Sequence record: PZ502562.2
DNA: 38,725 nt
Strand: one strand, 5' to 3'
Source of the DNA: a phage
Below are positions 2,879 through 35,494 of this stretch, piece after piece. Position 1 is the first letter of the stretch. Each line of letters starts with the position of its first letter. Below the pieces are notes generated by a model, which did no database searches, was not told the DNA's origin, and worked only from the letters and a program-made list of their open reading frames with translations. Position numbers and translations under genes: made by a program.

Positions 2879-5530
2879 ATGAGCATGATTAACATCGCTA
2901 AGAACGATTTCTCTGACATCGAACTAGCTACTATCCCGTTCAACACTCTGGCCGATCACTACGGTGAGCGTCTAGCTCGCGAGCAGTTGGCCCTTGAGCA
3001 TGAGTCTTATGAAATGGGAGAAGCACGTTTCCGCAAGATGTTTGAGCGTCAACTTAAGGCCGGTGAGGTTGCAGACAATGCAGCTGCTAAACCTCTGATC
3101 ACTACTCTACTGCCCAAGATGGTTGCACGCATCAACGACTGGTTTGAGGAAGTGAAAGCTAAGCGTGGCAAACGTCCAACCGCTTTCCAGTTCCTGCAAG
3201 AAATCAAGCCGGAATCTGTAGCGTATATCACCATTAAGACTACCCTTGCTTGCCTAACGAGCGTGGACAATACAACCGTTCAGGCTGTAGCAAGCGCCAT
3301 CGGACGGGCTATCGAGGAAGAAGCTCGCTTCGGTCGAATCCGTGACCTAGAAGCTAAGCACTTCAAGAAAAACGTTGAGGAACAGCTAAACAAGCGCGTA
3401 GGGCATGTCTACAAGAAAGCATTCATGCAAGTAGTCGAGGCCGATATGCTCTCTAAGGGTCTACTCGGTGGCGAGGCGTGGTCTTCATGGCACAAGGAAG
3501 ACTCCATTCACGTAGGTGTGCGCTGCATTGAGATGCTCATCGAGTCCACCGGAATGGTTAGCTTGCACCGCCAAAATGCTGGCGTAGTGGGCCAAGACTC
3601 TGAGACTATCGAACTCGCACCGGAATACGCTGAGGCTATCGCAACACGGGCTGGGGCACTGGCTGGTATCTCTCCGATGTATCAGCCTTGCATAGTACCT
3701 CCTAAACCTTGGACTGGTGTAACTGGTGGTGGATACTGGGCTAATGGTCGCCGTCCGCTGGTACTGGTGCGCACCCACAGCAAGAAGGCACTGATGCGCT
3801 ACGAAGATGTTTACATGCCTGAGGTATACAAGGCGATCAACATTGCGCAAAACACCGCTTGGAAAATCAACAAGAAAGTTCTGGCGGTCGCCAACGTGAT
3901 AACCAAGTGGAAGCACTGCCCTGTAGAAGACATTCCTTCGATTGAGCGTGAAGAACTCCCGATGAAACCGGAAGACATCGACACGAATCCAGAGGCGCTG
4001 ACCGCTTGGAAACGTGCAGCTGCCGCTGTGTACCGTAAGGACAAGGCCCGTAAGTCTCGCCGTATTAGTCTGGAGTTCATGCTTGAGCAAGCCAATAAGT
4101 TTGCTAACCGTAAGGCCATCTGGTTCCCTTACAACATGGACTGGCGTGGTCGTGTATACGCTGTGTCAATGTTTAACCCGCAAGGTAACGACATGACAAA
4201 GGGTCTGCTGACACTGGCTAAAGGTAAACCAATCGGCAAGGAAGGATTTTACTGGCTGAAAATTCACGGTGCGAACTGCGCGGGAGTTGATAAGGTTCCA
4301 TTCCCTGAGCGCATCAAGTTCATTGAGGATAACCATGAGAACATCCTAGCGTGCGCTAAGTCCCCACTGGAGAACACTTGGTGGGCTGAGCAGGACTCAC
4401 CATTCTGCTTCCTCGCGTTCTGCTTTGAGTACGCTTGGGTACAGCACCACGGCCTGCGTTACAACTGCTCGCTGCCATTGGCGTTCGATGGGTCTTGCTC
4501 CGGTATCCAGCACTTCTCCGCGATGCTCCGCGATGAGGTGGGTGGTCGTGCTGTTAACCTGCTACCTAGCGAAACCGTTCAGGACATCTACGGGATTGTT
4601 GCCAAGAAAGTCAACGAGATTCTGCAAGCTGATGCAATCAACGGGACCGATAACGAAGTAGTTACCGTGACCGATGAGAACACTGGGGAAATCTCTGAGA
4701 AAATCAAGCTGGGTACTAAAGCACTAGCTGGTCAATGGCTTGCTTACGGTGTAACTCGTAGCGTCACTAAACGTTCAGTCATGACGCTGGCCTATGGCTC
4801 CAAAGAGTTCGGCTTCCGCCAGCAAGTCCTTGAGGACACCATACAGCCAGCTATCGATTCAGGCAAAGGTCTGATGTTCACCCAACCTAATCAGGCTGCT
4901 GGATATATGGCTAAGCTGATTTGGGAGTCAGTGAGCGTTACCGTAGTGGCTGCTGTAGAGGCTATGAACTGGCTTAAGTCTGCTGCGAAGCTGCTGGCTG
5001 CTGAGGTCAAAGACAAGAAGACTGGTGAGATTCTCCGTAAACGCTGTGCGGTGTATTGGGTAACTCCTGATGGCTTCCCTGTGTGGCAAGAATACAAGAA
5101 GCCAATTCAGACTCGCTTGAACTTGATGTTCCTCGGTCAGTTCCGCTTACAGCCGACTATCAACACCAACAAGGACAGCGAGATTGATGCCCATAAGCAG
5201 GAATCTGGTATATCCCCTAACTTTGTACACAGCCAAGACGGTAGCCACCTACGTAAGACTGTAGTGTGGGCATATGAGAAGTACGGAATCGAATCTTTTG
5301 CACTGATTCATGACTCCTTCGGGACCATTCCGGCTGACGCTGCCAACCTATTCAAGGCTGTTCGTGAGACTATGGTTGACACCTACGAGTCCTGCGATGT
5401 ACTTGCAGACTTCTACAACCAGTTCGCTGATCAGTTACATGAGTCACAATTGGATAAAATGCCAGCACTTCCGGCTAAAGGTAACTTGAATTTACGAGAC
5501 ATCTTAGAGTCAGACTTCGCGTTTGCGTAA
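2879..5530 (+). CDS. 1: T7-type single-subunit DNA-dependent RNA polymerase
   Basis: 883 aa, near-identical to T7 RNAP throughout; consistent with the T7-consensus promoters across the window. Confidence 0.99.
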   Translation: MSMINIAKNDFSDIELATIPFNTLADHYGERLAREQLALEHESYEMGEARFRKMFERQLKAGEVADNAAAKPLITTLLPKMVARINDWFEEVKAKRGKRPTAFQFLQEIKPESVAYITIKTTLACLTSVDNTTVQAVASAIGRAIEEEARFGRIRDLEAKHFKKNVEEQLNKRVGHVYKKAFMQVVEADMLSKGLLGGEAWSSWHKEDSIHVGVRCIEMLIESTGMVSLHRQNAGVVGQDSETIELAPEYAEAIATRAGALAGISPMYQPCIVPPKPWTGVTGGGYWANGRRPLVLVRTHSKKALMRYEDVYMPEVYKAINIAQNTAWKINKKVLAVANVITKWKHCPVEDIPSIEREELPMKPEDIDTNPEALTAWKRAAAAVYRKDKARKSRRISLEFMLEQANKFANRKAIWFPYNMDWRGRVYAVSMFNPQGNDMTKGLLTLAKGKPIGKEGFYWLKIHGANCAGVDKVPFPERIKFIEDNHENILACAKSPLENTWWAEQDSPFCFLAFCFEYAWVQHHGLRYNCSLPLAFDGSCSGIQHFSAMLRDEVGGRAVNLLPSETVQDIYGIVAKKVNEILQADAINGTDNEVVTVTDENTGEISEKIKLGTKALAGQWLAYGVTRSVTKRSVMTLAYGSKEFGFRQQVLEDTIQPAIDSGKGLMFTQPNQAAGYMAKLIWESVSVTVVAAVEAMNWLKSAAKLLAAEVKDKKTGEILRKRCAVYWVTPDGFPVWQEYKKPIQTRLNLMFLGQFRLQPTINTNKDSEIDAHKQESGISPNFVHSQDGSHLRKTVVWAYEKYGIESFALIHDSFGTIPADAANLFKAVRETMVDTYESCDVLADFYNQFADQLHESQLDKMPALPAKGNLNLRDILESDFAFA

Positions 5531-5538
5531 CGTCAAAT

Positions 5539-5561
5539 TAATACGACTCACTATAGAGGGA
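5539..5561 (+). promoter_or_regulatory. T7-RNAP promoter phi1.1A
   Basis: TAATACGACTCACTATAGAGGGA, +1 G at 5556. Confidence 0.85.
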
Positions 5562-5608
5562 CAAACTCAAGGTCACTTAAACGAGTGGCCTTTATGATTG
5601 ACCTTCTT
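5562..5608 (+). promoter_or_regulatory. Putative RNase III site (R1.1-like)
   Basis: CAAACTCAAGGTCACTTAAACGAGTGGCCTTTATGATTGACC hairpin motif. Confidence 0.45.
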
Positions 5609-5613
5609 CTGGT

Positions 5614-5636
5614 TAATACGACTCACTATAGGGAAG
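5614..5636 (+). promoter_or_regulatory. T7-RNAP promoter phi1.1B
   Basis: TAATACGACTCACTATAGGGAAG, +1 G at 5631. Confidence 0.85.
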
Positions 5637-5637
5637 A

Positions 5638-5712
5638 CCTTAAGGTTTAACTTTAAGACCATTAAGTGTTAATTAAAGATTTAAATTAAAGACTACTAAT
5701 AGAGGACTTTAA
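5638..5712 (+). other. AT-rich region downstream of phi1.1A/B; probable primary origin of DNA replication
   Basis: TAAGGTTTAACTTTAAGACCATTAAGTGTTAATTAAAGATTTAAATTAAAGACTACTAATAG lies just after the paired promoters, where the T7 primary origin maps. Confidence 0.5.
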
Positions 5713-5714
5713 GT

Positions 5715-5843
5715 ATGCGTAACTTCGAAAAGATGATCAAACGTTCTAAACATAACGCTCATGACTTCGAGGCAACCAAGGGTCGCAAGTTGAATAAGAC
5801 TAAGCGCGACAGTTCGCATAAGCGTAGCTGGGAGGGTCAGTAA
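5715..5843 (+). CDS. 1.1: Gene 1.1 protein (42 aa, basic)
   Basis: MRNFEKMIKRSKHNAHDFEATKGRKLNKTKRDSSHKRSWEGQ; stop is 1 nt before the gene 1.2 ATG. Confidence 0.8.
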   Translation: MRNFEKMIKRSKHNAHDFEATKGRKLNKTKRDSSHKRSWEGQ

Positions 5844-5844
5844 G

Positions 5845-6117
5845 ATGGGACGTTTATACAGTGGCAACTTAATAGCATACAAAGACGCTATCGAGAGACT
5901 TAAAGAAGACTATGATGCAAATGTGGTCGTTGAAACTTATCGCTATGAGGACTTCGAACAGCGACGGATGGTTGCCGGTGAGACACTTCGAGTGATATTG
6001 CGGGATGGCTTAATGCTGACCGCTAAGTGTTTCGAGCAGTCAGATGAAGACGTTCGCTGTAATGCACAGACCGAATGGCTCCGTAAGGTACACAGTGACC
6101 TACAGCACTGGAAGTAA
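5845..6117 (+). CDS. 1.2: Gp1.2-like protein (host dGTPase inhibitor in T7); divergent central region
   Basis: 90 aa; N-terminus MGRLYSGNL and C-terminus ...DEDV...W...DLQHWK match T7 gp1.2, the middle does not. Confidence 0.8.
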   Translation: MGRLYSGNLIAYKDAIERLKEDYDANVVVETYRYEDFEQRRMVAGETLRVILRDGLMLTAKCFEQSDEDVRCNAQTEWLRKVHSDLQHWK

Positions 6118-6137
6118 TACGACTCACTAAAGGGACA
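6115..6137 (+). promoter_or_regulatory. T7-RNAP promoter phi1.3
   Basis: TAATACGACTCACTAAAGGGACA, +1 G at 6132. Confidence 0.85.
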
Positions 6138-6170
6138 ATGCTTAAGGTCGCTCATTGAGTGGCCTTAGTC
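6136..6170 (+). promoter_or_regulatory. Putative RNase III site (R1.3-like)
   Basis: CTTAAGGTCGCTCATTGAGTGGCCTTAGTC hairpin. Confidence 0.4.
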
Positions 6171-6195
6171 ATTTAACCGATAGGAGATAAACATT

Positions 6196-7218
6196 ATGAT
6201 GAACATTAAGACCAACCCATTTAAAGCCGTGTCTTTCGTAGAGTCTTCCATTAAGAAAGCTCTGGATAACGCTGGGTATCTTATCGCTGACATCAAGTAC
6301 GATGGTGTACGTGGGAACATCTGCGTAGACAATACCGCTAACAGTTGCTGGCTCTCTCGTGTATCTAAAACGATTCCGGCACTGGAGCACCTAAACGGAT
6401 TCGATGCACGCTGGAAGCGTCTTCTGAATGATGACCGTTGCTTCTACAAAGATGGCTTTATGCTGGATGGGGAACTAATGGTCAAGGGAGTAGACTTCAA
6501 CACTGGGTCTGGCCTACTGCGCACCAAATGGACCGACACTAAGAACCAAGAGTTCCACGAAGAGTTATTCGTTGAGCCAGTACGTAAGAAAGACAAGGTT
6601 CCCTTTAAGTTACACACTGGACATCTGTGCGTCAAACTGTATGCAATCCTCCCGCTTCACGTTGTAGAGTCTGGAGAAGACTGTGACATCATGACGCTAC
6701 TCATGCAGGAACACGTTAAGAACATGCTGCCTCTGCTACAGGAATACTTCCCTGAAATCGAATGGCAAGCGGCTGAATCTTACGAGGTCTACGACATGGT
6801 AGAACTACAGCAACTGTATGAGAAGAAGCGTGAAGAAGGTCATGAGGGTCTCATTGTAAAAGACCCAATGGGAATCTATAAGCGAGGCAAGAAGTCCGGC
6901 TGGTTCAAAATGAAGCCAGAGAACGAGGCTGACGGCATTATCCAAGGTCTGGTATGGGGTACAGAGGGTCTGGCTAACGAAGGCAAAGTGATTGGCTTTG
7001 AGGTGCTTCTTGAGAGTGGTCGTGTAGTAAACGCCACAAACATCTCTCGCGCCTTAATGGACGAGTTCACCAATACCGTAAACATTGAAGGCCGTGACTT
7101 CTACAATGGACACGCTTGCCAGATTAGCTACATGGAGGAAACACCAGACGGCTCTCTGCGTCACCCATCGTTCGTAATGTTCCGTGGCACAGAGGACAAC
7201 CCTCAAGAGAAAATTTAA
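6196..7218 (+). CDS. 1.3: ATP-dependent DNA ligase
   Basis: 340 aa; adenylation motif KYDGVRG; collinear with T7 ligase apart from a roughly 19-aa internal deletion near the C-terminus. Confidence 0.95.
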   Translation: MMNIKTNPFKAVSFVESSIKKALDNAGYLIADIKYDGVRGNICVDNTANSCWLSRVSKTIPALEHLNGFDARWKRLLNDDRCFYKDGFMLDGELMVKGVDFNTGSGLLRTKWTDTKNQEFHEELFVEPVRKKDKVPFKLHTGHLCVKLYAILPLHVVESGEDCDIMTLLMQEHVKNMLPLLQEYFPEIEWQAAESYEVYDMVELQQLYEKKREEGHEGLIVKDPMGIYKRGKKSGWFKMKPENEADGIIQGLVWGTEGLANEGKVIGFEVLLESGRVVNATNISRALMDEFTNTVNIEGRDFYNGHACQISYMEETPDGSLRHPSFVMFRGTEDNPQEKI

Positions 7219-7225
7219 GCACACT

Positions 7226-7256
7226 GGCTCACCTTAGGGTGGGCCTTTCTGCGTTT
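7226..7256 (+). terminator. Rho-independent terminator for host RNAP (TE-like)
   Basis: GGCTCACC-TTAG-GGTGGGCC stem-loop (8 bp, one G-U) followed by TTTCTGCGTTT, directly after gene 1.3. Confidence 0.8.
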
Positions 7257-7278
7257 AATACGACTCACTATAGGAGAT
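7256..7278 (+). promoter_or_regulatory. T7-RNAP promoter phi1.5
   Basis: TAATACGACTCACTATAGGAGAT, +1 G at 7273. Confidence 0.85.
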
Positions 7279-7285
7279 ACACACA

Positions 7286-7378
7286 ATGATGTACCTACTT
7301 CCATTACTCATTATTATCATTGGATGTCTTGCGCTTCATTTTAAGGATGACAACGACATGCCAGATGGTCACGCTTAA
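7286..7378 (+). CDS. 1.5: Gene 1.5 small hydrophobic protein (30 aa)
   Basis: MMYLLPLLIIIIGCLALHFKDDNDMPDGHA; between phi1.5 and phi1.6 as in T7. Confidence 0.7.
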   Translation: MMYLLPLLIIIIGCLALHFKDDNDMPDGHA

Positions 7379-7398
7379 TACGACTCACTAAAGGAGAC
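7376..7398 (+). promoter_or_regulatory. T7-RNAP promoter phi1.6
   Basis: TAATACGACTCACTAAAGGAGAC, +1 G at 7393. Confidence 0.85.
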
Positions 7399-7403
7399 AC
7401 TAT

Positions 7404-7664
7404 ATGTTTCGACTTCATTTCAACAAAAGCATTAAGAATTTCACAGTTCGCCGTGCTGACCGTTCAATCGTATGTGCGAGCGAGCGCCGAGCTAAGTTAC
7501 CTCCTATTGGTGACACAGTCCCCTTGGCACCGAGCGTCCACATCATTATCACTCGTGGTGACTTCGAGAAAGCAATAGACAAGAAACGTCCGGTTCTTAG
7601 CGTGGCAGTGACCCGCTTCCCGTTCGTCCGTCTGTTACTCAAACGAATCAAGGAGGTGTTCTGA
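7404..7664 (+). CDS. 1.6: Gene 1.6 protein
   Basis: 86 aa, [33 protein letters not shown]..., near-identical to T7 gp1.6. Confidence 0.9.
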
Positions 7665-8198
7665 TGATTGTTGTACTTAATGGCCCCGCTGGTTGCGGAA
7701 AGGATACAATAGCTAACCGTATTCTTGAGGTATCCAGTGTATTCAAGAAGGCCGAGATGAAAGCTCCTATGTGGGAAATAGCTAATGCGACTTTGGGTAG
7801 TAACTTCGAGAAGTTCGTAGAGCTATACAACGACAGGGCTACCAAAGAGAAACCTTGCGATATGTTGGGTGGACTTTCACCACGCAACTTCTTTATTCAT
7901 ATCTCTGAGAAGTGGTGTAAGCCTCTATTCGGAGACACTTACTTTGGAGAGCGTATGCTGCAAACAGCCATCTCCAACAAACATCACGAAACCATTCTGT
8001 CAGATGGTGGTTTCTCTGTGGAACTGATGCCAGCACTTGCCGCTGGGGAGACAATTATGTTGGTTCGTTTACATCGTGAGGGTTATACGTTCGATGGAGA
8101 TAGTCGGTCGTACATACACATCGAGCACAAGAACTGCTGGCCTCTGGATGTGAAACTAGAAGATGGTAAAATTGACGAAGCCGTTGAGGGGATTTTAG

Positions 8199-8526
<328 letters not shown>

Positions 8527-26289: not shown

Positions 26290-28551
26290 ATGAGTAAGAT
26301 TGAATCTGCCCTCCAAGCGGTACAACCGGGACTCTCTCGGTTACGTGGTGGGACTGGTGGTATGGGCTATCGTGCAGCAACCACTCAGGCTGAGCAACCA
26401 AAGTCAAGTCTATTGGACACCATTGGTCGGTTCGCTAAGGCTGGTGCTGATATGTACGCCGCTAAGGAGCAACGAGCACGAGACCTAGCCGATGAGCGCT
26501 CAAACGAGATTATCCGTAAGCTGACTCCTGAGCAACGCCGAGAGGCTCTCAACAAAGGAACACTTCTGTATCAGGATGACCCATACGCTATGGAAGCACT
26601 GCGAGTCAAGACTGGTCGTAACGCCGCGTACCTTGTGGACGATGACGTTATGCAGAAGATTAAAGAGGGTAAATTCCGTACTCGTGAAGCGATGGAAGAG
26701 TATCGTCATAGTCGTCTTCAAGAGGGCGCTAAGTCATACGCTGAGCAGTTCGGTATCGACCCTGATGACGTTGACTATCAGCGTGGTTTCAATGGGGATA
26801 TTACTGAGCGTAACATCTCACTGTATGGGGCACATGATAGCTTCTTGAGCCAGCAAGCTCAGAAGGGTGCAATCATGAACAGCCGAGTGGAACTCAACGG
26901 TGTCCTTCAAGACCCTGACATGCTTCGCCGCCCAGACTCTGCTGACTTCTTTGAGAAGTACATCGACAATGGTCTGGTCACTGGGGCAATCCCATCTGAC
27001 GCTCAAGCCACACAGCTTATAAGCCAAGCGTTCAGTGACGCTTCTAGCCGTGCTGGTGGTGCTGACTTCCTGATGCGGGTTGGTGACAAGAAGGTAACAC
27101 TTAACGGTGCCACTACTACCTATAAGGAACTTATGGGCGAAGAGCAGTGGAATGCCCTTATGGTGACAGCCCAGAGAGCACAATACGACAACGATGCGAA
27201 ACTGAACGAGAAGTTTCAACTAGATGTCAACTCTGCGTTGTTCGTAGACGACCCTCGTGTTGGTTGGGAGAAGCTCCAAGGAATCAAGGCTGAGCTAGAT
27301 AAATACCAGCCGGGAGAGCAGATGACCCCTCAACGCGCCACGCTTATAGAGGCCCAGAAGCAACTAAGAGCCAAGATGGTAGAGTGGGCCAAGAACGAGG
27401 CCAAAGCACTTGATGAGGCTCAGAAGGCCGATAATAAGTTTAGGGTTATTGACGCTCAGTATCAGAAGCGAATCAACGGAGAGTGGGTCTCTACGGACTT
27501 TAAGGACATGCCTACAAACGATAACACTGGGGAGTTCAAGCATAGCGACATTGTAAACTACGCTAACAAGAAGCTGGCAGACATAGACGCTATGGACATC
27601 CCAGATGGAGCAAAAGATAGACTCAAACTACAGTACCTGCAATCAGACTCTAAGGACGGGCCTTTCAGGACTGCCATAGGAACGATGGTTCAAGATGCGG
27701 CTCAGGAGTGGTCTTCTTCTGTGATGAACGGTAAGTTAGCAGATAAGACTCCAGCGATGGATGCCTTACGTAGAATCCGTAACGCAGACCCATACCTAAT
27801 AGCGGCACTGTACCCTGAGCAGGCTGAGCTATTCTTGACGATGGACTTAGCTGACCGACAGGGTGTTGATGTGCAGGAGTTGATTGATGCTGAACGTCAG
27901 ATTGCTACACGTTCTAAGGAGCAACGATTCGAAGATGATATAGCCTTTGAGAAATCACTTAATGACTCTAAAGTTCCAGAGATAGCTAATATGCCGACAG
28001 AACTACGGGGGCTTGCTCGTAAGATTTATGACTCGGTTAAGTACCGCACCAACAACGTTGACATGGCTATGACCGAGATGCAGAAGCTCCTTAAGGAGTC
28101 CACTACTACCTTTAACGATGATAGCCCAGACAACGAGGGAGTCATTGGGGTAATTCCGAGGAACTATCTACAGGTAAACGATGACCCTAAATCTTGGAAG
28201 CAAGGTAAGGATATTATCGACGCTGCCCTTAAAGGAATCATAGCGGCTAACCCAAGTATGGCCTCTGATAAGATGACCGTATCGGTAATCGGGAAGTCTA
28301 TCTACATCATGCCAACTACGGGGACTGGTCCACGGGTTCGTTACGACAAGGAGATGTTGTCCAAGGTCTGGAAGGAAACACAAGAGCGTCTCGCAACGGA
28401 AGCCGTTGAGAAGGCCCGTGATAAAGCTATGGCTGATGCCAACAAGCGAGCACCTATAGTCGCCGCTAAGAAAGCTCGTGAGGCTGGCGCTAAACGAGTC
28501 CGAGATAAACGTAAACAGACTCCGAAGTTCATCTATGGACGCAAGGAGTAA
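26290..28551 (+). CDS. 15: Internal core protein gp15
   Basis: 753 aa; N- and C-terminal thirds match T7 gp15 closely, the centre is more divergent. Confidence 0.96.
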   Translation: MSKIESALQAVQPGLSRLRGGTGGMGYRAATTQAEQPKSSLLDTIGRFAKAGADMYAAKEQRARDLADERSNEIIRKLTPEQRREALNKGTLLYQDDPYAMEALRVKTGRNAAYLVDDDVMQKIKEGKFRTREAMEEYRHSRLQEGAKSYAEQFGIDPDDVDYQRGFNGDITERNISLYGAHDSFLSQQAQKGAIMNSRVELNGVLQDPDMLRRPDSADFFEKYIDNGLVTGAIPSDAQATQLISQAFSDASSRAGGADFLMRVGDKKVTLNGATTTYKELMGEEQWNALMVTAQRAQYDNDAKLNEKFQLDVNSALFVDDPRVGWEKLQGIKAELDKYQPGEQMTPQRATLIEAQKQLRAKMVEWAKNEAKALDEAQKADNKFRVIDAQYQKRINGEWVSTDFKDMPTNDNTGEFKHSDIVNYANKKLADIDAMDIPDGAKDRLKLQYLQSDSKDGPFRTAIGTMVQDAAQEWSSSVMNGKLADKTPAMDALRRIRNADPYLIAALYPEQAELFLTMDLADRQGVDVQELIDAERQIATRSKEQRFEDDIAFEKSLNDSKVPEIANMPTELRGLARKIYDSVKYRTNNVDMAMTEMQKLLKESTTTFNDDSPDNEGVIGVIPRNYLQVNDDPKSWKQGKDIIDAALKGIIAANPSMASDKMTVSVIGKSIYIMPTTGTGPRVRYDKEMLSKVWKETQERLATEAVEKARDKAMADANKRAPIVAAKKAREAGAKRVRDKRKQTPKFIYGRKE

Positions 28552-28577
28552 CTAAAGGCTACATAAGGAGGCCCTAA

Positions 28578-31500
28578 ATGGATAAGTACGATAAGAACGT
28601 ACCAAGTGAGTATGATGGTCTGTTCCAGAAGGCGGCTGATGCCAACGGGGTCTCTTATGACCTTTTACGTAAAGTCGCTTGGACAGAATCACGGTTTCAA
28701 CCCACAGCCAAGTCCAAGACTGGACCATTAGGCATGATGCAGTTCACCAAGGCAACAGCTAAGGCTATGGGACTTAATGTAACCGATGGGCCTGATGATG
28801 ACCGACTGGTTCCAGAGTTGTCTATCAACGCTGCTGCCAGACATCTTGCTGAGTTGGTGAATAAATTCGACGGAGATGAACTTAAGGCTGCACTTGCATA
28901 TAACCAAGGTGAGGGGAGACTAGGCGCTCCCCAGCTTGAGGCATACTCTAAGGGTGACTTCTCAGCTATCTCCGACGAGGGTCGCAACTACATGCGAAAC
29001 CTCATGGATGTGGCTAAGTCTCCAATGGCTGGACAGTTGGAAGCGTTCGGAGGCATTACCCCAAAGGGTAAAGGCATCCCTTCTGATGTTGGTTTAGGAG
29101 ACATTAAGGTCGAAGGGAAGCGTAAAGTAACAGATGCTATCCCAGAGTCAACTGGATTGGACATTAAAGGTATCGAACAGGAGGCTCCGGCGAAATCATT
29201 CGCTACGGACTTTTGGGACCATCATAAACAGAAACCATCTGAGTATGACGACCGCTCAACATTCTTCGGATTCAAAGATGCTGCAAGTGCCGAAATTGAC
29301 AACTCAGTCCTCGGCATGGCCTTCCGTGCTGGTCGCCTCGATAATAGTTTTGATGTGTTTAAGGATGTTATCACGCCTACGCGTTGGAACTCTACTATCT
29401 GGACTCCTGAGGAACTAGAGAGGATTCGAACAGAAGTTAAGAACCCAGCGTATCTAAATGTTGTTACAGGCGGTTCCCCTGAGAACCTTGACGACCTAAT
29501 TAGATTAGCCAACGAGAACTATGAGAATGACCTAAAGAAAGCTGACGCAGGTATCGGGGCACAGCTTTCCGCTGGCATTGTTGGTGCGGCATTCGACCCA
29601 CTATCGTATGTTCCGTTGGTTGGTGTGACAGGTAAGGGCTTTAAGTTAATCAATAAGGCTCTTGTGGTAGGTGCTGAGAGTGCAGCCATTAACATGGCCT
29701 CAGAAGGGTTGCGAACGTCTATAGTTGGTGGAGACGCTAATTATACTGGCGCGGTACTAGGTGGTCTTGTGTTTGGGGCAGGAATGTCTGCAATCAGTGA
29801 CGCTATAACCGCTGGGTTGAGACGTAGCAAACCTGAGGCTGAGTTCAACAACGAGTTCGTCGGGCCGTTGATGCGTATGGAAGCTCGCGAGACTGCCTTT
29901 AACGCTAACTCTGAGGACTTGTCTAAGATGAGCACAGGCAGCATCAACTTCGACAGAGAGTACGGTGGGGTTAACTACGCACCATTGGATACCGAGCCGG
30001 GTGCAGTTGTCCTCCCTCAAGGTCAAATCCTCAGCGACACTAACCCACTGAACCCTCAGACCCTCAGTGAGTTTGAGGCGATAAATCCTGAACGTGCAGC
30101 AAGAGGTATCTCCTTAGGTGGGTTCACTGAGATTGGCCTTAAGACACTGCGCTCTGAGAACACGGGAGTTCGCTCCATTGCTCGTGACCTAGTGCGCTCT
30201 CCAACTGGTATGGAATCGGGGTCTAACGGTAAGTTCGGCTCGACCGCTGATGATATTCATAGTCGGCTATCATCCAACGATAACCGCGATTGGAACCTAT
30301 ACTATGATAAGATGCGGGAAGTCATGAAAGACCCTGAGTTCACAACAGGTGCGCCTAAGATGAGCAAAGCAGAGGCCGTTGAGTCCATCGACCGCAAAAT
30401 TGCGCTGGCAATAGAGCACCCTGAGTTACAGGTAAACTTGTCTCCCAAAGAGATGGACCTGATGCGCCACGTTAAGGGTCACTACGACCTCAAGCGTGAA
30501 CTTATGGAAAACCCTGCTGTGTTCGGCAATCCAAAGGCGGTTAGCATCTTCCCCGGCAGTCGCAACAAAGGCACATACATTCCGAGAGTATATGACACCC
30601 AATCGAAGAATTTATATATTCAACGTTTGGGGAGCCGAGAGGCTTTACAGGAGGCTATCGCTGAAAGTTCGCTTGCGTCATACTACCTGCGTCCAGAAGT
30701 TAAGGCGCGTATTGATGAGCACCTGATGGAAGTCAATGGACTCAAGTCAACTAAAGAAGTAACACATGAAATGGTTCGAAAGTATGCGATGGATAAGGCT
30801 TACGGTATATCCCATACAGACCAATTCTCGTCGTCTTCTATTGTTGATGAGAACATCACGGGGCTTGTCGGCATCGAGAACAATAACTTTCTGGAAGCAC
30901 GTAACCTCTTTGACACCGATGTGCCAACCACGTTACCGGATGGCTCTACGTTTTCAGTAGATGACATTCGCGTGTTCAGCCAGCGCATCCTTATGCCAGC
31001 ATATGACCGTCGTGTAAATGGTGATATTGCTATCATTGGTAGCTCTGGTAAAACTACCAAGGAACTCAAGGATGAGATTATGGTACTGAGTAAGCAGGCC
31101 GAAGGTAACGGGAAGTTGAAGGGAGAAGTAGAAGCTCTCAAGGATACCGTGAAGATTCTAACTGGTCGCGCCCGTCGCAGCCCAGAAGGTGCTTTAGGGA
31201 CAGCTTTACGCTCTCTGAACGACATGACGTTCTTTGCTAAGAACTTCTATATGCCTCTCCAGAACTTCACGGAGATTGCCGGTATGCTAGTCAAAGGTAA
31301 TGTCTCTGCTGTGACTCACGGAATCCCTGTGATTAACGATTGGGTTAACCGAAGTAAACCAATGCGAGCCTCTGAGATTAAAGAACTCCACAGTATGGTG
31401 TTCGGTAAGGAACTTGACCAGCTAATCCGTCCGAGTCGCGAAGACCACATTAGCAGACTTAGGGAGTCTACAGACACCAACGCTGTGTTGGCTAATGTAG

Positions 31501-32552
31501 TTGGTACTCTTCGTTTCGGTACTCAGGAGTTAGCGGCTCGTTCCCCGTGGACGGTTATGCTAAATGGCACCACTAACTACATCATTGACGCTGCCCGTCA
31601 AGGTGTCCTTGGTGATATTGCAAGTGCGGTATTATCAGGGACTGGTGCTAAGTTTGGTAAGGCAAATTATCTTAAGTCTGCATCAATAAGTCCTGAGCAG
31701 TGGAATGGTATCAAGCAACTATTTCGAGACCACGCCACTCGTGATTCTGGAGGTAAGTTCACAATCAGGGACAAAAGAGCGTTCACCTATGACCCTCGCA
31801 CAATGGACCTGTGGAGACTTGCTGACAAAGTTGCAGGTGAGACAATCATGCGACCGCACAAGATTTCCTCACAGGACTCAGTTGCGTATGGGGCAGGCGT
31901 TAAGATGGTGATGCAGTTTAAGAACTTCGTCATTAAGTCTCTTAACGCCAGATTCGTGCGTAGCTTCTATGAGGCCACAAAGAACAACCGTGCGTTAGAC
32001 CAAGCGTTAACACACATTGTTGCCTGTGGACTAGCTGGTGGCTACTACGTTGGGCAGGCGCATCTAAAGGCCGCTTCCTTACAGGATGACAAACGTAAGG
32101 AGTACCTAAAGATGGCACTAGACCCGAAGATGATTGCCCATGCATCCATCTCTCGTAGCTCACATTTAGGTTCGCCACTTAGCATCTACGATATGATCGC
32201 TGGGGTGTTTGGTGATGACACCTATAAGTACACACGCTCCACGGTACTACCGAAGCAACCAGAAGAACGCGATCGCACAAAAGCGGTCACAGGTCGTCAG
32301 GTTACTGGTATGATTAGTGGTGCTTTAGGCGAGCAGATTCCTGCTTTAGGGTTCGCAGGGCAGGTTGGAGGTACGGCACTTAATGCTGTATCACTACTGA
32401 AAGCGCCCAACAAGGCTACCGAGATGGAGTTCCGTACAGGGATGTTTAATACAATGCGTGAGATTGTTCCGAACGACCCTATCACGCAGCAACTCATTAT
32501 GAAAATTTATGAGGCCAATGGTATCCACATCAAGGAGACACCTAGGAAATAA
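28578..32552 (+). CDS. 16: Internal core protein gp16 with N-terminal lytic transglycosylase domain
   Basis: 1324 aa; N-terminal SLT motif ...VAWTESRFQPTAKSKTGPLGMMQFT...; collinear with T7 gp16. Confidence 0.98.
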   Translation: MDKYDKNVPSEYDGLFQKAADANGVSYDLLRKVAWTESRFQPTAKSKTGPLGMMQFTKATAKAMGLNVTDGPDDDRLVPELSINAAARHLAELVNKFDGDELKAALAYNQGEGRLGAPQLEAYSKGDFSAISDEGRNYMRNLMDVAKSPMAGQLEAFGGITPKGKGIPSDVGLGDIKVEGKRKVTDAIPESTGLDIKGIEQEAPAKSFATDFWDHHKQKPSEYDDRSTFFGFKDAASAEIDNSVLGMAFRAGRLDNSFDVFKDVITPTRWNSTIWTPEELERIRTEVKNPAYLNVVTGGSPENLDDLIRLANENYENDLKKADAGIGAQLSAGIVGAAFDPLSYVPLVGVTGKGFKLINKALVVGAESAAINMASEGLRTSIVGGDANYTGAVLGGLVFGAGMSAISDAITAGLRRSKPEAEFNNEFVGPLMRMEARETAFNANSEDLSKMSTGSINFDREYGGVNYAPLDTEPGAVVLPQGQILSDTNPLNPQTLSEFEAINPERAARGISLGGFTEIGLKTLRSENTGVRSIARDLVRSPTGMESGSNGKFGSTADDIHSRLSSNDNRDWNLYYDKMREVMKDPEFTTGAPKMSKAEAVESIDRKIALAIEHPELQVNLSPKEMDLMRHVKGHYDLKRELMENPAVFGNPKAVSIFPGSRNKGTYIPRVYDTQSKNLYIQRLGSREALQEAIAESSLASYYLRPEVKARIDEHLMEVNGLKSTKEVTHEMVRKYAMDKAYGISHTDQFSSSSIVDENITGLVGIENNNFLEARNLFDTDVPTTLPDGSTFSVDDIRVFSQRILMPAYDRRVNGDIAIIGSSGKTTKELKDEIMVLSKQAEGNGKLKGEVEALKDTVKILTGRARRSPEGALGTALRSLNDMTFFAKNFYMPLQNFTEIAGMLVKGNVSAVTHGIPVINDWVNRSKPMRASEIKELHSMVFGKELDQLIRPSREDHISRLRESTDTNAVLANVVGTLRFGTQELAARSPWTVMLNGTTNYIIDAARQGVLGDIASAVLSGTGAKFGKANYLKSASISPEQWNGIKQLFRDHATRDSGGKFTIRDKRAFTYDPRTMDLWRLADKVAGETIMRPHKISSQDSVAYGAGVKMVMQFKNFVIKSLNARFVRSFYEATKNNRALDQALTHIVACGLAGGYYVGQAHLKAASLQDDKRKEYLKMALDPKMIAHASISRSSHLGSPLSIYDMIAGVFGDDTYKYTRSTVLPKQPEERDRTKAVTGRQVTGMISGALGEQIPALGFAGQVGGTALNAVSLLKAPNKATEMEFRTGMFNTMREIVPNDPITQQLIMKIYEANGIHIKETPRK

Positions 32553-32624: not shown

Positions 32625-34466
32625 ATGGCTAACGTAATTAAAACCGTTTTGACTTACCAGTTAGATGGCTCCACTCATGATTTTAATATCCCGTTTGAGT
32701 ATCTAGCCCGTAAGTTCGTAGTGGTGACTCTTATTGGTGTAGACCGTAAGGTCCTTACGCTTAATACAGACTATCGCTTTGCTACACGTACTACCATCTC
32801 ACTGACTAAGGCTTGGGGTCCATCCGATGGCTACACGACCATCGAGTTACGCCGAGTAACCTCCACGACCGACCGCTTGGTTGACTTTACGGACGGCTCA
32901 ATCCTCCGTGCGTATGACCTTAACGTTGCTCAGATTCAAACGATGCACGTAGCGGAGGAGGCGCGCGACCTGACTGCTGATACAATCGGTGTCAATAATG
33001 ACGGTCACTTGGATGCCCGTGGTCGGCGTGTAGTGAACGTTGGTAATGCGGTAGACCGCGGGGATGCGGTTAACTTGGGGATGCTTCAAGATTGGGACAA
33101 CTCCGCCCTGAATCAAGCAGACCGTTCGGAGAAGGAGGCTGATAGGGCAGAGGCCGCTGCGTCCCAAGCTGACAGTAGCGCTGCTAAGGCTCTTTCTTCT
33201 GAGAAAAGTGCTTCCACAAGTGCTACTAACGCACTCGCTTCGGAGAATGCAGCAAAGGCATCACAAGTGGCTGCGGCTGGTAGCGCAAGTTCGTCAGAAC
33301 AATCTAAGAACGAGGCAAATGCCTACAAAGAGGCCGCGCAAACTGCCGCGGACACCGCGTCCAACCATGAGGATAAAGCCAAGGAGTACATGGAGAGGGC
33401 CGAGGCTGTCGCCTGCTCCAAGGAGAATCCGGTATCTGAGATAACGTTCACTACTGGTGGGTCATTAGGTTCTGAAAGGGCCAAGGTCCGGGACACAGTT
33501 ACCAACCGCATCTACTACTGGATTGGGACCTTCCCCAAGGTAATACCTGAAAACTCCGTAGGAGAAGACCTTATAAAGGCAGATGGTGACCTGTGGGATT
33601 CTCTGCAAAACCCTAACGGTAAGTGGGTAGACGCGGGTAACAGCGTCCCTGCACTAAGAACCACATTAGGAGAAGGAGTACCCTTCAAGTACGAGACGTA
33701 CCCGAAGGATAACCTCAACGCCATTACTGAGCGTCAATCCAATAGGGTGCGTGTGGCTACGTGGAACATTTGGGGAGCAGGTGCTCAAGGTAACTTTGGT
33801 TCACTGGGTTCTGCCGATAGGATAAAGGCCCTACAGGAGCGATGGCTCAACCAAAAGCTAGACTACGTAGGTCTACAGGAGTGCTATTTCAACGACACAT
33901 TCTACCCATTCTCCATGTATACAATAGGTTCTCTCCACACTGCATTCGTACAGACGTGCGAACCTTATGAGTCTGGAATAACCATCCTGGATTTCGACTA
34001 CGGTACGGGATGTGTAAGCAGTGGCGCTGACGTGAAGATGTCTGGAGGAATCTATAAGGACAGCATCGGAAGCTCAGTGGATAAGGAGCGCCGAGCGTGG
34101 ACTCGCACAGAGACTACCATTAGGGGCCGTAAGTACGTAATATACAATACACATCTCAGCTATGATAGGGCGCGATTCACTCAGCAGCAGTCAGAGTTGA
34201 ACAACCTCCTATTAGCAGAGACTAACCCACAAGTAATCGTAATGGGAGATTTCAACCACGACGACATCACGTTGTTTCAGCCATTACTTGATGCCGGATG
34301 GTCTATGGGCCAGAACAAAGAGTTTAATACTAACAACACCGGCGGAAAATGGCACATTGATAATATACTGTACAAAGGGTTCTCTAAGAGAGTTGATAGA
34401 GGAACTCAGGACGCACCAAGTTCTCTATCTGACCATAAATTATTCTATGTGGAACTGGAGGTATAA
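32625..34466 (+). CDS. 17: Chimeric tail fibre: T7-like tail-attachment N-terminus, Ala/Ser-rich shaft, C-terminal EEP (endonuclease/exonuclease/phosphatase)-fold domain
   Basis: 613 aa. Residues 1 to about 150 match T7 gp17; the rest is unrelated to the T7 shaft and tip. C-terminal motifs in EEP order: VATWNIWG, DYVGLQECY, VIYNTHLSYD, VIVMGDFNHDD, SDHKLFYVE. Confidence 0.9.
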   Translation: MANVIKTVLTYQLDGSTHDFNIPFEYLARKFVVVTLIGVDRKVLTLNTDYRFATRTTISLTKAWGPSDGYTTIELRRVTSTTDRLVDFTDGSILRAYDLNVAQIQTMHVAEEARDLTADTIGVNNDGHLDARGRRVVNVGNAVDRGDAVNLGMLQDWDNSALNQADRSEKEADRAEAAASQADSSAAKALSSEKSASTSATNALASENAAKASQVAAAGSASSSEQSKNEANAYKEAAQTAADTASNHEDKAKEYMERAEAVACSKENPVSEITFTTGGSLGSERAKVRDTVTNRIYYWIGTFPKVIPENSVGEDLIKADGDLWDSLQNPNGKWVDAGNSVPALRTTLGEGVPFKYETYPKDNLNAITERQSNRVRVATWNIWGAGAQGNFGSLGSADRIKALQERWLNQKLDYVGLQECYFNDTFYPFSMYTIGSLHTAFVQTCEPYESGITILDFDYGTGCVSSGADVKMSGGIYKDSIGSSVDKERRAWTRTETTIRGRKYVIYNTHLSYDRARFTQQQSELNNLLLAETNPQVIVMGDFNHDDITLFQPLLDAGWSMGQNKEFNTNNTGGKWHIDNILYKGFSKRVDRGTQDAPSSLSDHKLFYVELEV

Positions 34467-34467
34467 C

Positions 34468-35277
34468 ATGACCAACAAACTACTAGTAAACACTGAGGTA
34501 GCTCTCGCGGATGGGGACGCTCTATCCCTAGAGATGGTTCGTATGCGAAACGAACTGACAATCGCTAAGGCGGTTCAGGGTGAGACCCATTTCTACAAGA
34601 GTGTTAAGGATATGGGCATTACCGGGAAGGTTACGCTACTCTCCATTGCGAAGAGGATGCGCCGACGCTCTGTCCTCATCGTGAGTGTGTACGGAGGGAC
34701 CAGTGATGGTCCTGACCTTCCGCTCCCTTACTTCAACTCAGGGACTCCTGTTTATATGTCCGGCATACTTTGGGCGTACAAGATGGAGGATGAGAAAAAA
34801 GTCTATTTCGAGTGGCGTAACGAGAACATGACTGCCCGGTGTAACTATAACGCACACGTTGAGGACAAGGTTACTCCGTGGGTGTTCGATATGCTACCTA
34901 AGATGAATGCTACGGCTGGTCCGGGATACTGGCAGAACAGGATGTCAAATATTTGGGTTCCGGGGACGTATTACTTCACTAGAGACCAGATGAACGGCTT
35001 CACCGATAGACCTGTACTTGGAGGGGGCTACTTGGAGGTAATGAATGCAGGTAACTCACCTACTTCTGACAGAAACTATGTATTCACCTTAAACACTTCG
35101 GACCAACACAAGTGGTCCCGTCAAAATGATGGGGATTGGAGAATCATCCCTGTGTGCTTCACCGCAGCCGTACATGACAGCCAGATGCGCGTGGGTGATA
35201 TGAAAGTGGCAAGCAATGGTATGCTCCATATCAGAGTAAGCTCCAGTAAAGTGGGCCAGATTGCCACCGTTGGATAA
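34468..35277 (+). CDS. Hypothetical 269-aa protein downstream of the tail fibre; no counterpart in T7
   Basis: ATG 34468 lies 1 nt after the gene 17 TAA, with RBS GGAGG at 34457-34461. The ORF track shows a longer version from 34288 overlapping gene 17. Aromatic/Asn/Gly-rich, no signal peptide, no recognisable catalytic motif. Confidence 0.75.
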   Translation: MTNKLLVNTEVALADGDALSLEMVRMRNELTIAKAVQGETHFYKSVKDMGITGKVTLLSIAKRMRRRSVLIVSVYGGTSDGPDLPLPYFNSGTPVYMSGILWAYKMEDEKKVYFEWRNENMTARCNYNAHVEDKVTPWVFDMLPKMNATAGPGYWQNRMSNIWVPGTYYFTRDQMNGFTDRPVLGGGYLEVMNAGNSPTSDRNYVFTLNTSDQHKWSRQNDGDWRIIPVCFTAAVHDSQMRVGDMKVASNGMLHIRVSSSKVGQIATVG

Positions 35278-35290
35278 ATCAGGAGGTATC

Positions 35291-35494
35291 ATGTTATCCT
35301 TGGATTTTAATAATGAAGTCATCAAGGCTGCCCCCATTGCGGGGGCCGTTGGTGCTGACGCCACGTCTAGACTCATTTGGGGACTCTCCCTGAACGAGTG
35401 GTTCTACATTGCCGCTATCGCCTACACAGTGGTTCAGATTGGTGCCAAGGTAGTCGATAAGATGATTGACTGGAAGAAAGCCAATAAGGAGTAA
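35291..35494 (+). CDS. 17.5: Class II holin
   Basis: 67 aa from ATG 35291 with RBS AGGAGG (MLSLDFNNEVIKAAPIAGAVGADATSRLIWGLSLNEWFYIAAIAYTVVQIGAKVVDKMIDWKKANKE); one hydrophobic segment. Confidence 0.92.
   Translation: MLSLDFNNEVIKAAPIAGAVGADATSRLIWGLSLNEWFYIAAIAYTVVQIGAKVVDKMIDWKKANKE

Follow-up and report, generated by a model that had tools for sequence, protein, structure and literature searches.

The window analysed here, the whole stretch of phage DNA in sequence record PZ502562.2 (38,725 nucleotides), is a T7-like podovirus genome of the genus Teseptimavirus in which nearly the entire gene 1.2 has been exchanged, as a cassette, for a homologous allele of the Berlinvirus type. A preliminary description of this gene, made from the letters of the sequence, had recognized a gp1.2 with a ‘replaced central segment’. 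The middle of the protein has indeed diverged from T7, but the exchanged part comprises codons ~10–87, which belong to a homologous Berlinvirus-type allele with the same fold and contain no foreign insert. The account that best explains the observations as a whole, and to which we give a probability of about 0.75, is that a Berlinvirus-type allele was gained by recombination, that inhibition of the host dGTPase (Dgt) was kept, and that the body of the protein shapes the response of host defences. Over 94% of its first 25 kb the window has ~91% nucleotide identity to T7; identity to the window of 95% or more was reached by no record in the phage collection. The features of the gene 1.2 region are listed below.

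5539..5561, + strand: T7-type promoter reading TAATACGACTCACTATAGAGGGA, with 2 mismatches against the T7 consensus; equivalent by position to phi1.1A, the equivalence being taken from the T7 annotation
5614..5636, + strand: T7-type promoter 5' of genes 1.1 and 1.2, equivalent by position to phi1.1B, in a flank ~90–95% identical to T7 at the nucleotide level
5715..5843, + strand: gene 1.1, 42 aa, T7-like (Pfam PF08200, E = 1.9e-15; ~90% nucleotide identity to T7)
5835..6152, + strand: run of perfect identity to phage PHB19, 318 nt, within a 3.2-kb alignment; holds the cassette with both junctions
5845..6117, + strand: gene 1.2, 90 aa, from ATG to TAA; Berlinvirus-type allele, predicted Dgt (dGTPase) inhibitor
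5845..5871, + strand: codons 1–9 (MGRLYSGNL), encoding the N-terminal ‘warhead’, with the left junction inside; protein identical to T7
5872..6105, + strand: Berlinvirus-derived gene body, codons ~10–87, encoding the rest of helix 1, three beta strands and helix 2
6106..6137, + strand: right junction, comprising the last codons (H-W-K), the stop codon and the phi1.3 promoter; CACTGGAAGTAATACGACTCACTA is common to Teseptimavirus and Berlinvirus
6115..6137, + strand: phi1.3 promoter, reading TAATACGACTCACTAAAGGGACA, inside the right junction and overlapping the gene 1.2 stop codon
6196..7218: ATP-dependent ligase gene (gene 1.3), 340 aa, 3' of gene 1.2

Gene 1.2 occupies the genomic slot expected for gp1.2, between gene 1.1 and the ligase gene 1.3 and 3' of the phi1.1 promoters, with the stop of gene 1.1 lying 1 nt ahead of its start codon. 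ORFs on the minus strand across the region (e.g., 5943..6155, 70 aa) were set aside as mechanical, given that the genome is transcribed wholly on the + strand and that the + strand ORF is strongly homologous. A search for an RNA element behind the conservation pattern gave no Rfam match on either strand of 5400–6400.

The encoded protein starts with MGRLYSGNL and finishes with ...SDEDVRCNAQTEWLRKVHSDLQHWK, and it is a member of the gp1.2 family by every computational criterion tested. Pfam PF10922 matches it at full length (E = 8.7e-12; 45.6 bits against a cut-off of 22; profile positions 1–85 of 85), PHROG 2949 matches with E = 7.8e-35, and the sequence of PDB 2MDP/7U65_G is matched over residues 1–90 with E = 2e-9; these results bear out the earlier assignment of ORF 5845–6117 to gp1.2. 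Aligned with T7 gp1.2 (reference from NC_001604), 12/15 positions are identical in residues 1–15, 8/47 (17%) in residues 16–62, where there are two insertions (+3 and +2 aa), and 12/28 (43%) in residues 63–90. The T7-like termini and the unlike middle of ~50 residues noticed in the preliminary description are thus both confirmed, and the alignment with gp1.2 homologues shows no full-length high identity to T7 (overall, 36–38%). Homology to T7 gp1.2, whose PDB entries are 2MDP and 7U65–7U67, extends over the full length of the protein and is well above chance.

Conserved ends and a variable middle are the signature of the whole gp1.2 family. Columns conserved family-wide are M-G-R-x-Y-S-G-N, A15, G55, F63, D67-x-D69-V, N73, T76, W78-L79, L86 and W89, and positions ~16–62 are variable throughout. 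The C-terminal likeness to T7 (D-E-D-V, N, T, W-L, L, W-K) is seen at the protein level and not as retained T7 DNA. The family is small: 18 clusters were found at E ≤ 1e-3 among 1.84 billion representatives, the real ones being 83–91 aa long (family size is from this exhaustive search; a word-indexed protein search gave only relatives of ≥60% identity). By tblastn, gp1.2 is present in 476 phage records, ~60 of which carry the 90-aa allele class at ≥60% identity. A 1419-aa HEAT-repeat protein (P0079; 8 stretches, E = 5e-10) was rejected as a repeat/composition artefact, with D-x-D-V-R-x-A-A-x-x-A-L-x-x-I repeats in its sequence. The gp1.2 of Edwardsiella phage PVN09 (P0077) has 48 aa, of which the first 34 are of the window type and the rest is unrelated sequence; it is probably a frameshifted, inactivated copy.

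An AlphaFold2 model of window gp1.2, built on 36 family sequences (mean pLDDT 84.7), shows a helix, three strands and a helix (H6–23, E25–36, E41–52, E57–63, H68–89). In a Foldseek search of the PDB its best match is 7u66_G, T7 Gp1.2 in the Dgt complex (TM 0.83/0.89, rmsd 2.0 Å), followed by 7u65_G and the NMR structure 2MDP; beyond these T7 Gp1.2 entries there was no significant match, the next, unrelated, having E = 0.017. On this model, window gp1.2 is predicted to have the alpha-beta3-alpha fold of T7 Gp1.2, and the fold match implies that its middle is the same beta-sheet as in T7, somewhat longer.

The cryo-EM work of Klemm et al. (2022; PMC9478638) established inhibition of Dgt by T7 Gp1.2 and showed how it is achieved: the N-terminus of Gp1.2 enters the Dgt active site and traps (d)GTP in a non-catalytic pose in the active site of this host dGTP triphosphohydrolase. 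The amino group of G2 and R3 bind the (d)GTP phosphates and stack on the base, and the carbonyl of L4 holds the catalytic H126; Y5, S6, G7, A10 and V65 pack against Dgt monomer A, F12, K13 and Y28 touch R436 and F437 of monomer E, and the remainder of the protein has weak density and ‘hangs’ in solvent (PMC9478638). In window gp1.2, G2, R3, L4, Y5, S6, G7, K13 and V65 (window V70) are identical to T7. The peripheral contacts A10 and F12 are changed to I and Y, respectively, and T7 Y28 aligns to T31 or V29 of the window depending on the sequence aligner. Contact residues are identical to T7 at 8/11 positions, against 24/79 of the other aligned positions (one-sided Fisher p = 0.009). The functional interface is formed by the conserved ends of the protein, and its divergent middle serves as scaffold.

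Retention of the N-terminal residues G2-R3-L4-Y5-S6-G7 in a full-length homologue with the same fold leads us to predict that Dgt inhibition is retained. From sequence and model, window gp1.2 most likely inhibits enterobacterial Dgt by the T7 mechanism, and its role would be to protect the dGTP pool for phage DNA replication. T3 gene 1.2 is anti-dGTPase by genetic evidence, being needed on Dgt-overproducing E. coli optA1 (PMC2696425). The beta-sheet/helix body, largely solvent-exposed in the T7 complex, would be free to differ between allele classes while remaining under purifying selection within its own class. Measured against the window, dN/dS within the Berlin-type class is 0.08–0.18, which indicates that the body is constrained within its class and is not decaying.

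At the DNA level, the divergent block spans ~nt 5872 (codon 10) to ~nt 6105 (codon 87) and is wider than the central ~50 codons. The window is 90–97% identical to T7 in both flanks and 35–55% identical inside ~5860–6095, whereas identity to the Berlinviruses BP12A and 285P is 35–55% upstream, 93–95% inside (the gene body, which shares 35–55% with T7) and 20–55% between gene 1.2 and the ligase gene. These reciprocal profiles, together with the positions of the junctions, argue for exchange of the whole gene rather than substitution of its middle. In a tile scan with the complete T7 and BP12A genomes, gene 1.2 is the sole segment of the window that is ≥80% identical to BP12A and unlike T7.

Both junctions can be placed. 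On the left, codons 1–3 read ATGGGACGT as in T7, and the DNA is Berlin-like from ~codon 9–10. On the right, the junction falls within CACTGGAAG-TAA-TACGACTCACTA, i.e., the last codons and the phi1.3 promoter core, which are common to both genera; the promoter reads ...CAGTATAGGGACA in T7, ...CACTATTGCGAAA in BP12A and TAATACGACTCACTAAAGGGACA in the window. We propose that a T7-like (Teseptimavirus) genome exchanged its gene 1.2 for a Berlinvirus-type allele through homologous recombination, and that the crossovers would have occurred in two short stretches common to all these phages, the first ~9 codons (MGRLYSGNL) and the last codons with the phi1.3 promoter. Selection need not have driven the swap. 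Elsewhere in the 3.2-kb alignment of the window with PHB19, ~11% of the columns differ, a rate at which the probability of finding no difference in 318 nt is ~2e-16; perfect identity over this length, in otherwise ~11% divergent DNA, points to a common origin of both junctions and to recent spread.

The window differs from T7 at other places as well. A short block in the 3' part of the ligase gene (7045–7110) and a segment past that gene (7253–7400) differ from T7, the second being ~90% identical to PHB19. The ligase has 340 aa in the window and 359 in T7, and the counterpart of T7 gene 1.4 is apparently missing or replaced. Tile identity to T7 falls below 60%, with no likeness to BP12A, in 7651–8400, in patches of 27226–32550 and in 33001–35475, positions that correspond to the gene 1.7 region, the genes for internal virion proteins and that for the tail fibre, respectively; these are further mosaic modules of other origin.

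A relic of a comparable event is found in Teseptimavirus EG1 (MG488277), which has two tandem copies of gene 1.2 (935–1201 and 1201–1473). Copy 1 is of the IME390 type (88 aa) and ends in ...DWKEAL, a WKEAL that derives from the terminal part of Berlinvirus gene 1.1. Copy 2 belongs to the Berlin type, with 98% identity to the window; the copies meet at TGGAAGGAGGCACTCTAATGGG, which matches the Berlinvirus gene 1.1/1.2 junction exactly. EG1 shows a Berlinvirus segment entering a Teseptimavirus by way of the phi1.3 promoter and a brief match of W-K codons, and its tandem looks like a preserved recombination intermediate. The left junction in the window and PHB19 is unlike that of EG1 in lying inside the common N-terminal codons, and could have arisen either by direct replacement or by deletion between the repeated 5' ends of a tandem. 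Derivation of the window from EG1 itself through such a simple deletion is unsupported, the 3' half of window gene 1.1 being closer to T7 than to EG1 or PHB19; descent from a related tandem ancestor is possible. In AnnaIndermaur (Bas104), the annotation places an endonuclease gene (1248–1661) between gene 1.2 and the ligase gene, and a mobile nuclease in this position could favour co-conversion of gene 1.2.

Published work ties gene 1.2 to the sensing of phages by host defences. T7 gene 1.2 is one cause of exclusion by PifA, an abortive infection system of the F plasmid. For growth on F+ hosts T3 gene 1.2 is necessary, and it dominates over the T7 gene; T7 recombinants carrying the T3 gene offer one route by which phage can grow on an F+ selective host (PMC11011186). 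Among the Teseptimaviruses of the BASEL collection, the PifA-sensitive ones are only those with T7-type gp1.2 alleles; JeanTinguely (Bas64), a Teseptimavirus with a Berlinvirus-like allele, is PifA-resistant, and the PifA-resistant phages form one Gp1.2 clade (PMC8594841, PMC11990801). As an exception, one Kayfunavirus with a different allele is PifA-sensitive, and gp10 also contributes (PMC11990801). In addition, T7 gp1.2 appears to trigger ApeA (PMC11482910).

The link between gp1.2 allele and PifA is a correlation: escape from PifA exclusion goes with the Berlin/T3-type allele, and triggering of PifA with the T7 type. By analogy with T3 and JeanTinguely, the window allele may be expected to bring PifA resistance, and the body of gp1.2 would set the response of Gp1.2-sensing defence systems. 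We infer that the swap most likely changes how defence sensors see Gp1.2, with Dgt inhibition kept. Window gp10 is 96% identical to T7 gp10 across its alignable part (323 of 345 residues), which leaves gp10 as a route by which PifA could still act.

The preliminary description had offered another explanation, namely that the divergence may reflect adaptation to a different host target, and for this we found no support. We aligned E. coli K-12 dgt with 80 full-length Enterobacteriaceae orthologues and compared the positions that contact Gp1.2 (F193, in the numbering of the paper, was left out; the K-12 translation has V at 193). For the diverged body to adapt the inhibitor to another host dNTPase, whether the Dgt orthologue of another genus or a different dNTPase, would be in keeping with the broad host spectrum of the Berlinviruses, which infect many genera, and with variation between host genera at Dgt R137, H182, H227, R436 and F437, residues whose exact partners in gp1.2 (A10, F12, Y28) are those that differ from T7. 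Positions 137/182/227/436/437 read S-W-(S/N)-S-L in Klebsiella and K-H-(S/N)-R-(L/I) in Enterobacter, but the pattern R-H-x-R-F is found alike in Escherichia, Shigella, Salmonella and most Citrobacter, which thus have R137, H182, R436 and F437 in common. Moreover, the active-site residues Q53, H126, Y272, D276 and F391 and the partners of the Gp1.2 N-terminus (A130, N133, K232, P233) are effectively invariant across the 80 Enterobacteriaceae sequences, and on the phage side 6/6 of the residues that enter the active site and 8/11 of all contacts are identical to T7. Host range argues the same way: the Berlin-type class occurs in phages isolated on E. coli K-12, the host of T7 (EG1, JeanTinguely, CarlSpitteler, ErnstBeyeler), so that both T7-type and Berlin-type alleles are found in phages from this strain, and T3 gene 1.2, an allele 53% identical to that of the window, is effective against E. 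coli Dgt (PMC2696425). The literature in turn links allele type to PifA sensitivity (PMC8594841, PMC11990801). We therefore consider a shift to another dNTPase improbable, and defence sensing (PifA) is a more plausible context for the divergent body than a new target is. As a separate matter, the peripheral Gp1.2-contact positions of Dgt differ systematically in Klebsiella/Raoultella and in Enterobacter, and this genus-specific periphery could bear on the gp1.2 alleles of Klebsiella phages; host-driven tuning of the Dgt-contacting periphery is conceivable in general.

It is harder still to credit that window gp1.2 has lost Dgt inhibition altogether and keeps only another role, as a decoy or an anti-PifA factor. 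The positive, dominant role of T3 gene 1.2 on F+ hosts (PMC11011186) and the apparent triggering of ApeA by T7 gp1.2 (PMC11482910) would agree with such a role, but warhead residues 2–7 and V70 (T7 V65) are identical to T7, and the family-wide D-x-D-V motif and the fold are both retained. A further, unlikely explanation is neutral mosaicism, by which old allele classes drifted in an unconstrained scaffold and were shuffled at conserved flanks without any phenotypic difference. The middle of gp1.2 is variable across the whole family, the body makes no contacts and ‘hangs’ in solvent in the T7 complex, T7-like genomes are mosaic at many sites, and at least three allele classes exist side by side within Teseptimavirus (T7/ESh6, IME390/EG1 copy 1 and Berlin-type), all of which neutral shuffling would accommodate. 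It accords poorly with the strong purifying selection within the class (dN/dS 0.08–0.18), with the recent spread indicated by a 318-nt cassette identical to PHB19 amid ~11% divergence, and with the published difference in F+ host phenotype between the T3 and T7 alleles (PMC11011186). Recombinational gain of a Berlinvirus-type allele, with inhibition kept and defence response altered, is thus the reading that we prefer. A bolder version of it, which we put forward tentatively as one possibility, is that gene 1.2 might be a two-part, hot-swappable anti-defence cassette, with an invariant anti-Dgt N-terminal warhead and an exchangeable body. The surface of the body would decide whether PifA (possibly also ApeA) fires, or would actively block the sensors as T3 gp1.2 dominantly does; recombination would take hold at the conserved first ~9 codons and at the phi1.3 promoter, with tandems such as that of EG1 as intermediates. 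If this were true, the window allele would give PifA resistance to an otherwise T7-like phage with a T7-like gp10.

The protein identical to window gp1.2 is already in GenBank (from PHB19), where it is annotated as a dGTPase inhibitor, and there are published descriptions of Teseptimaviruses whose gp1.2 allele is Berlinvirus-like, with a link to PifA resistance; the finding is in this sense already known, and it matters little beyond annotation. The window does provide an unusually clean example of the swap, with ~235 nt at 93–95% nucleotide identity to Berlinvirus, both junctions mappable and a tandem relic in EG1, and this favours the idea that gene 1.2 is an anti-defence module exchanged by recombination. 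Since the backbone and gp10 are T7-like and gene 1.2 alone is Berlin-type, the phage would also be a convenient natural test case for separating gp1.2 from gp10 in PifA exclusion.

Among known systems, the closest are two phages with a T7-like backbone that carry the allele in the same slot, between genes 1.1 and 1.3: Escherichia phage vB_EcoP_PHB19, with a gp1.2 (QHI00774.1) of 100% amino acid identity to that of the window, and EG1, with 98% for its second copy (ATW57719.1). The flanks of both differ from the window by ~5–10%, and EG1 has the extra IME390-type gene 1.2 upstream. Nine ICTV species of Berlinvirus (BP12A, PZJ0206, A7, RN5i1, P483, P694, pO103, 285P, PC127) have gp1.2 proteins 90–96% identical to that of the window, with the same 90-aa length and indels, and window gp1.2 clusters with these by sequence; the Berlinvirus genome differs in that gene 1.05 is present, gene 1.1 is longer and the flanks share just 35–55% identity with the window. 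JeanTinguely (Bas64), Bas103 and Bas104 carry a separate sub-lineage of the allele, at 74–79% amino acid identity (JeanTinguely, 78%). The gp1.2 of T3 (Teetrevirus, with other promoters) is 53% identical to that of the window and has the same long form (90–92 aa), with very similar DNA in the 3' third of the gene. T7 gp1.2, at 36–38% identity, lacks the 5 extra residues by which the window protein lengthens the beta1-beta2 hairpin region.
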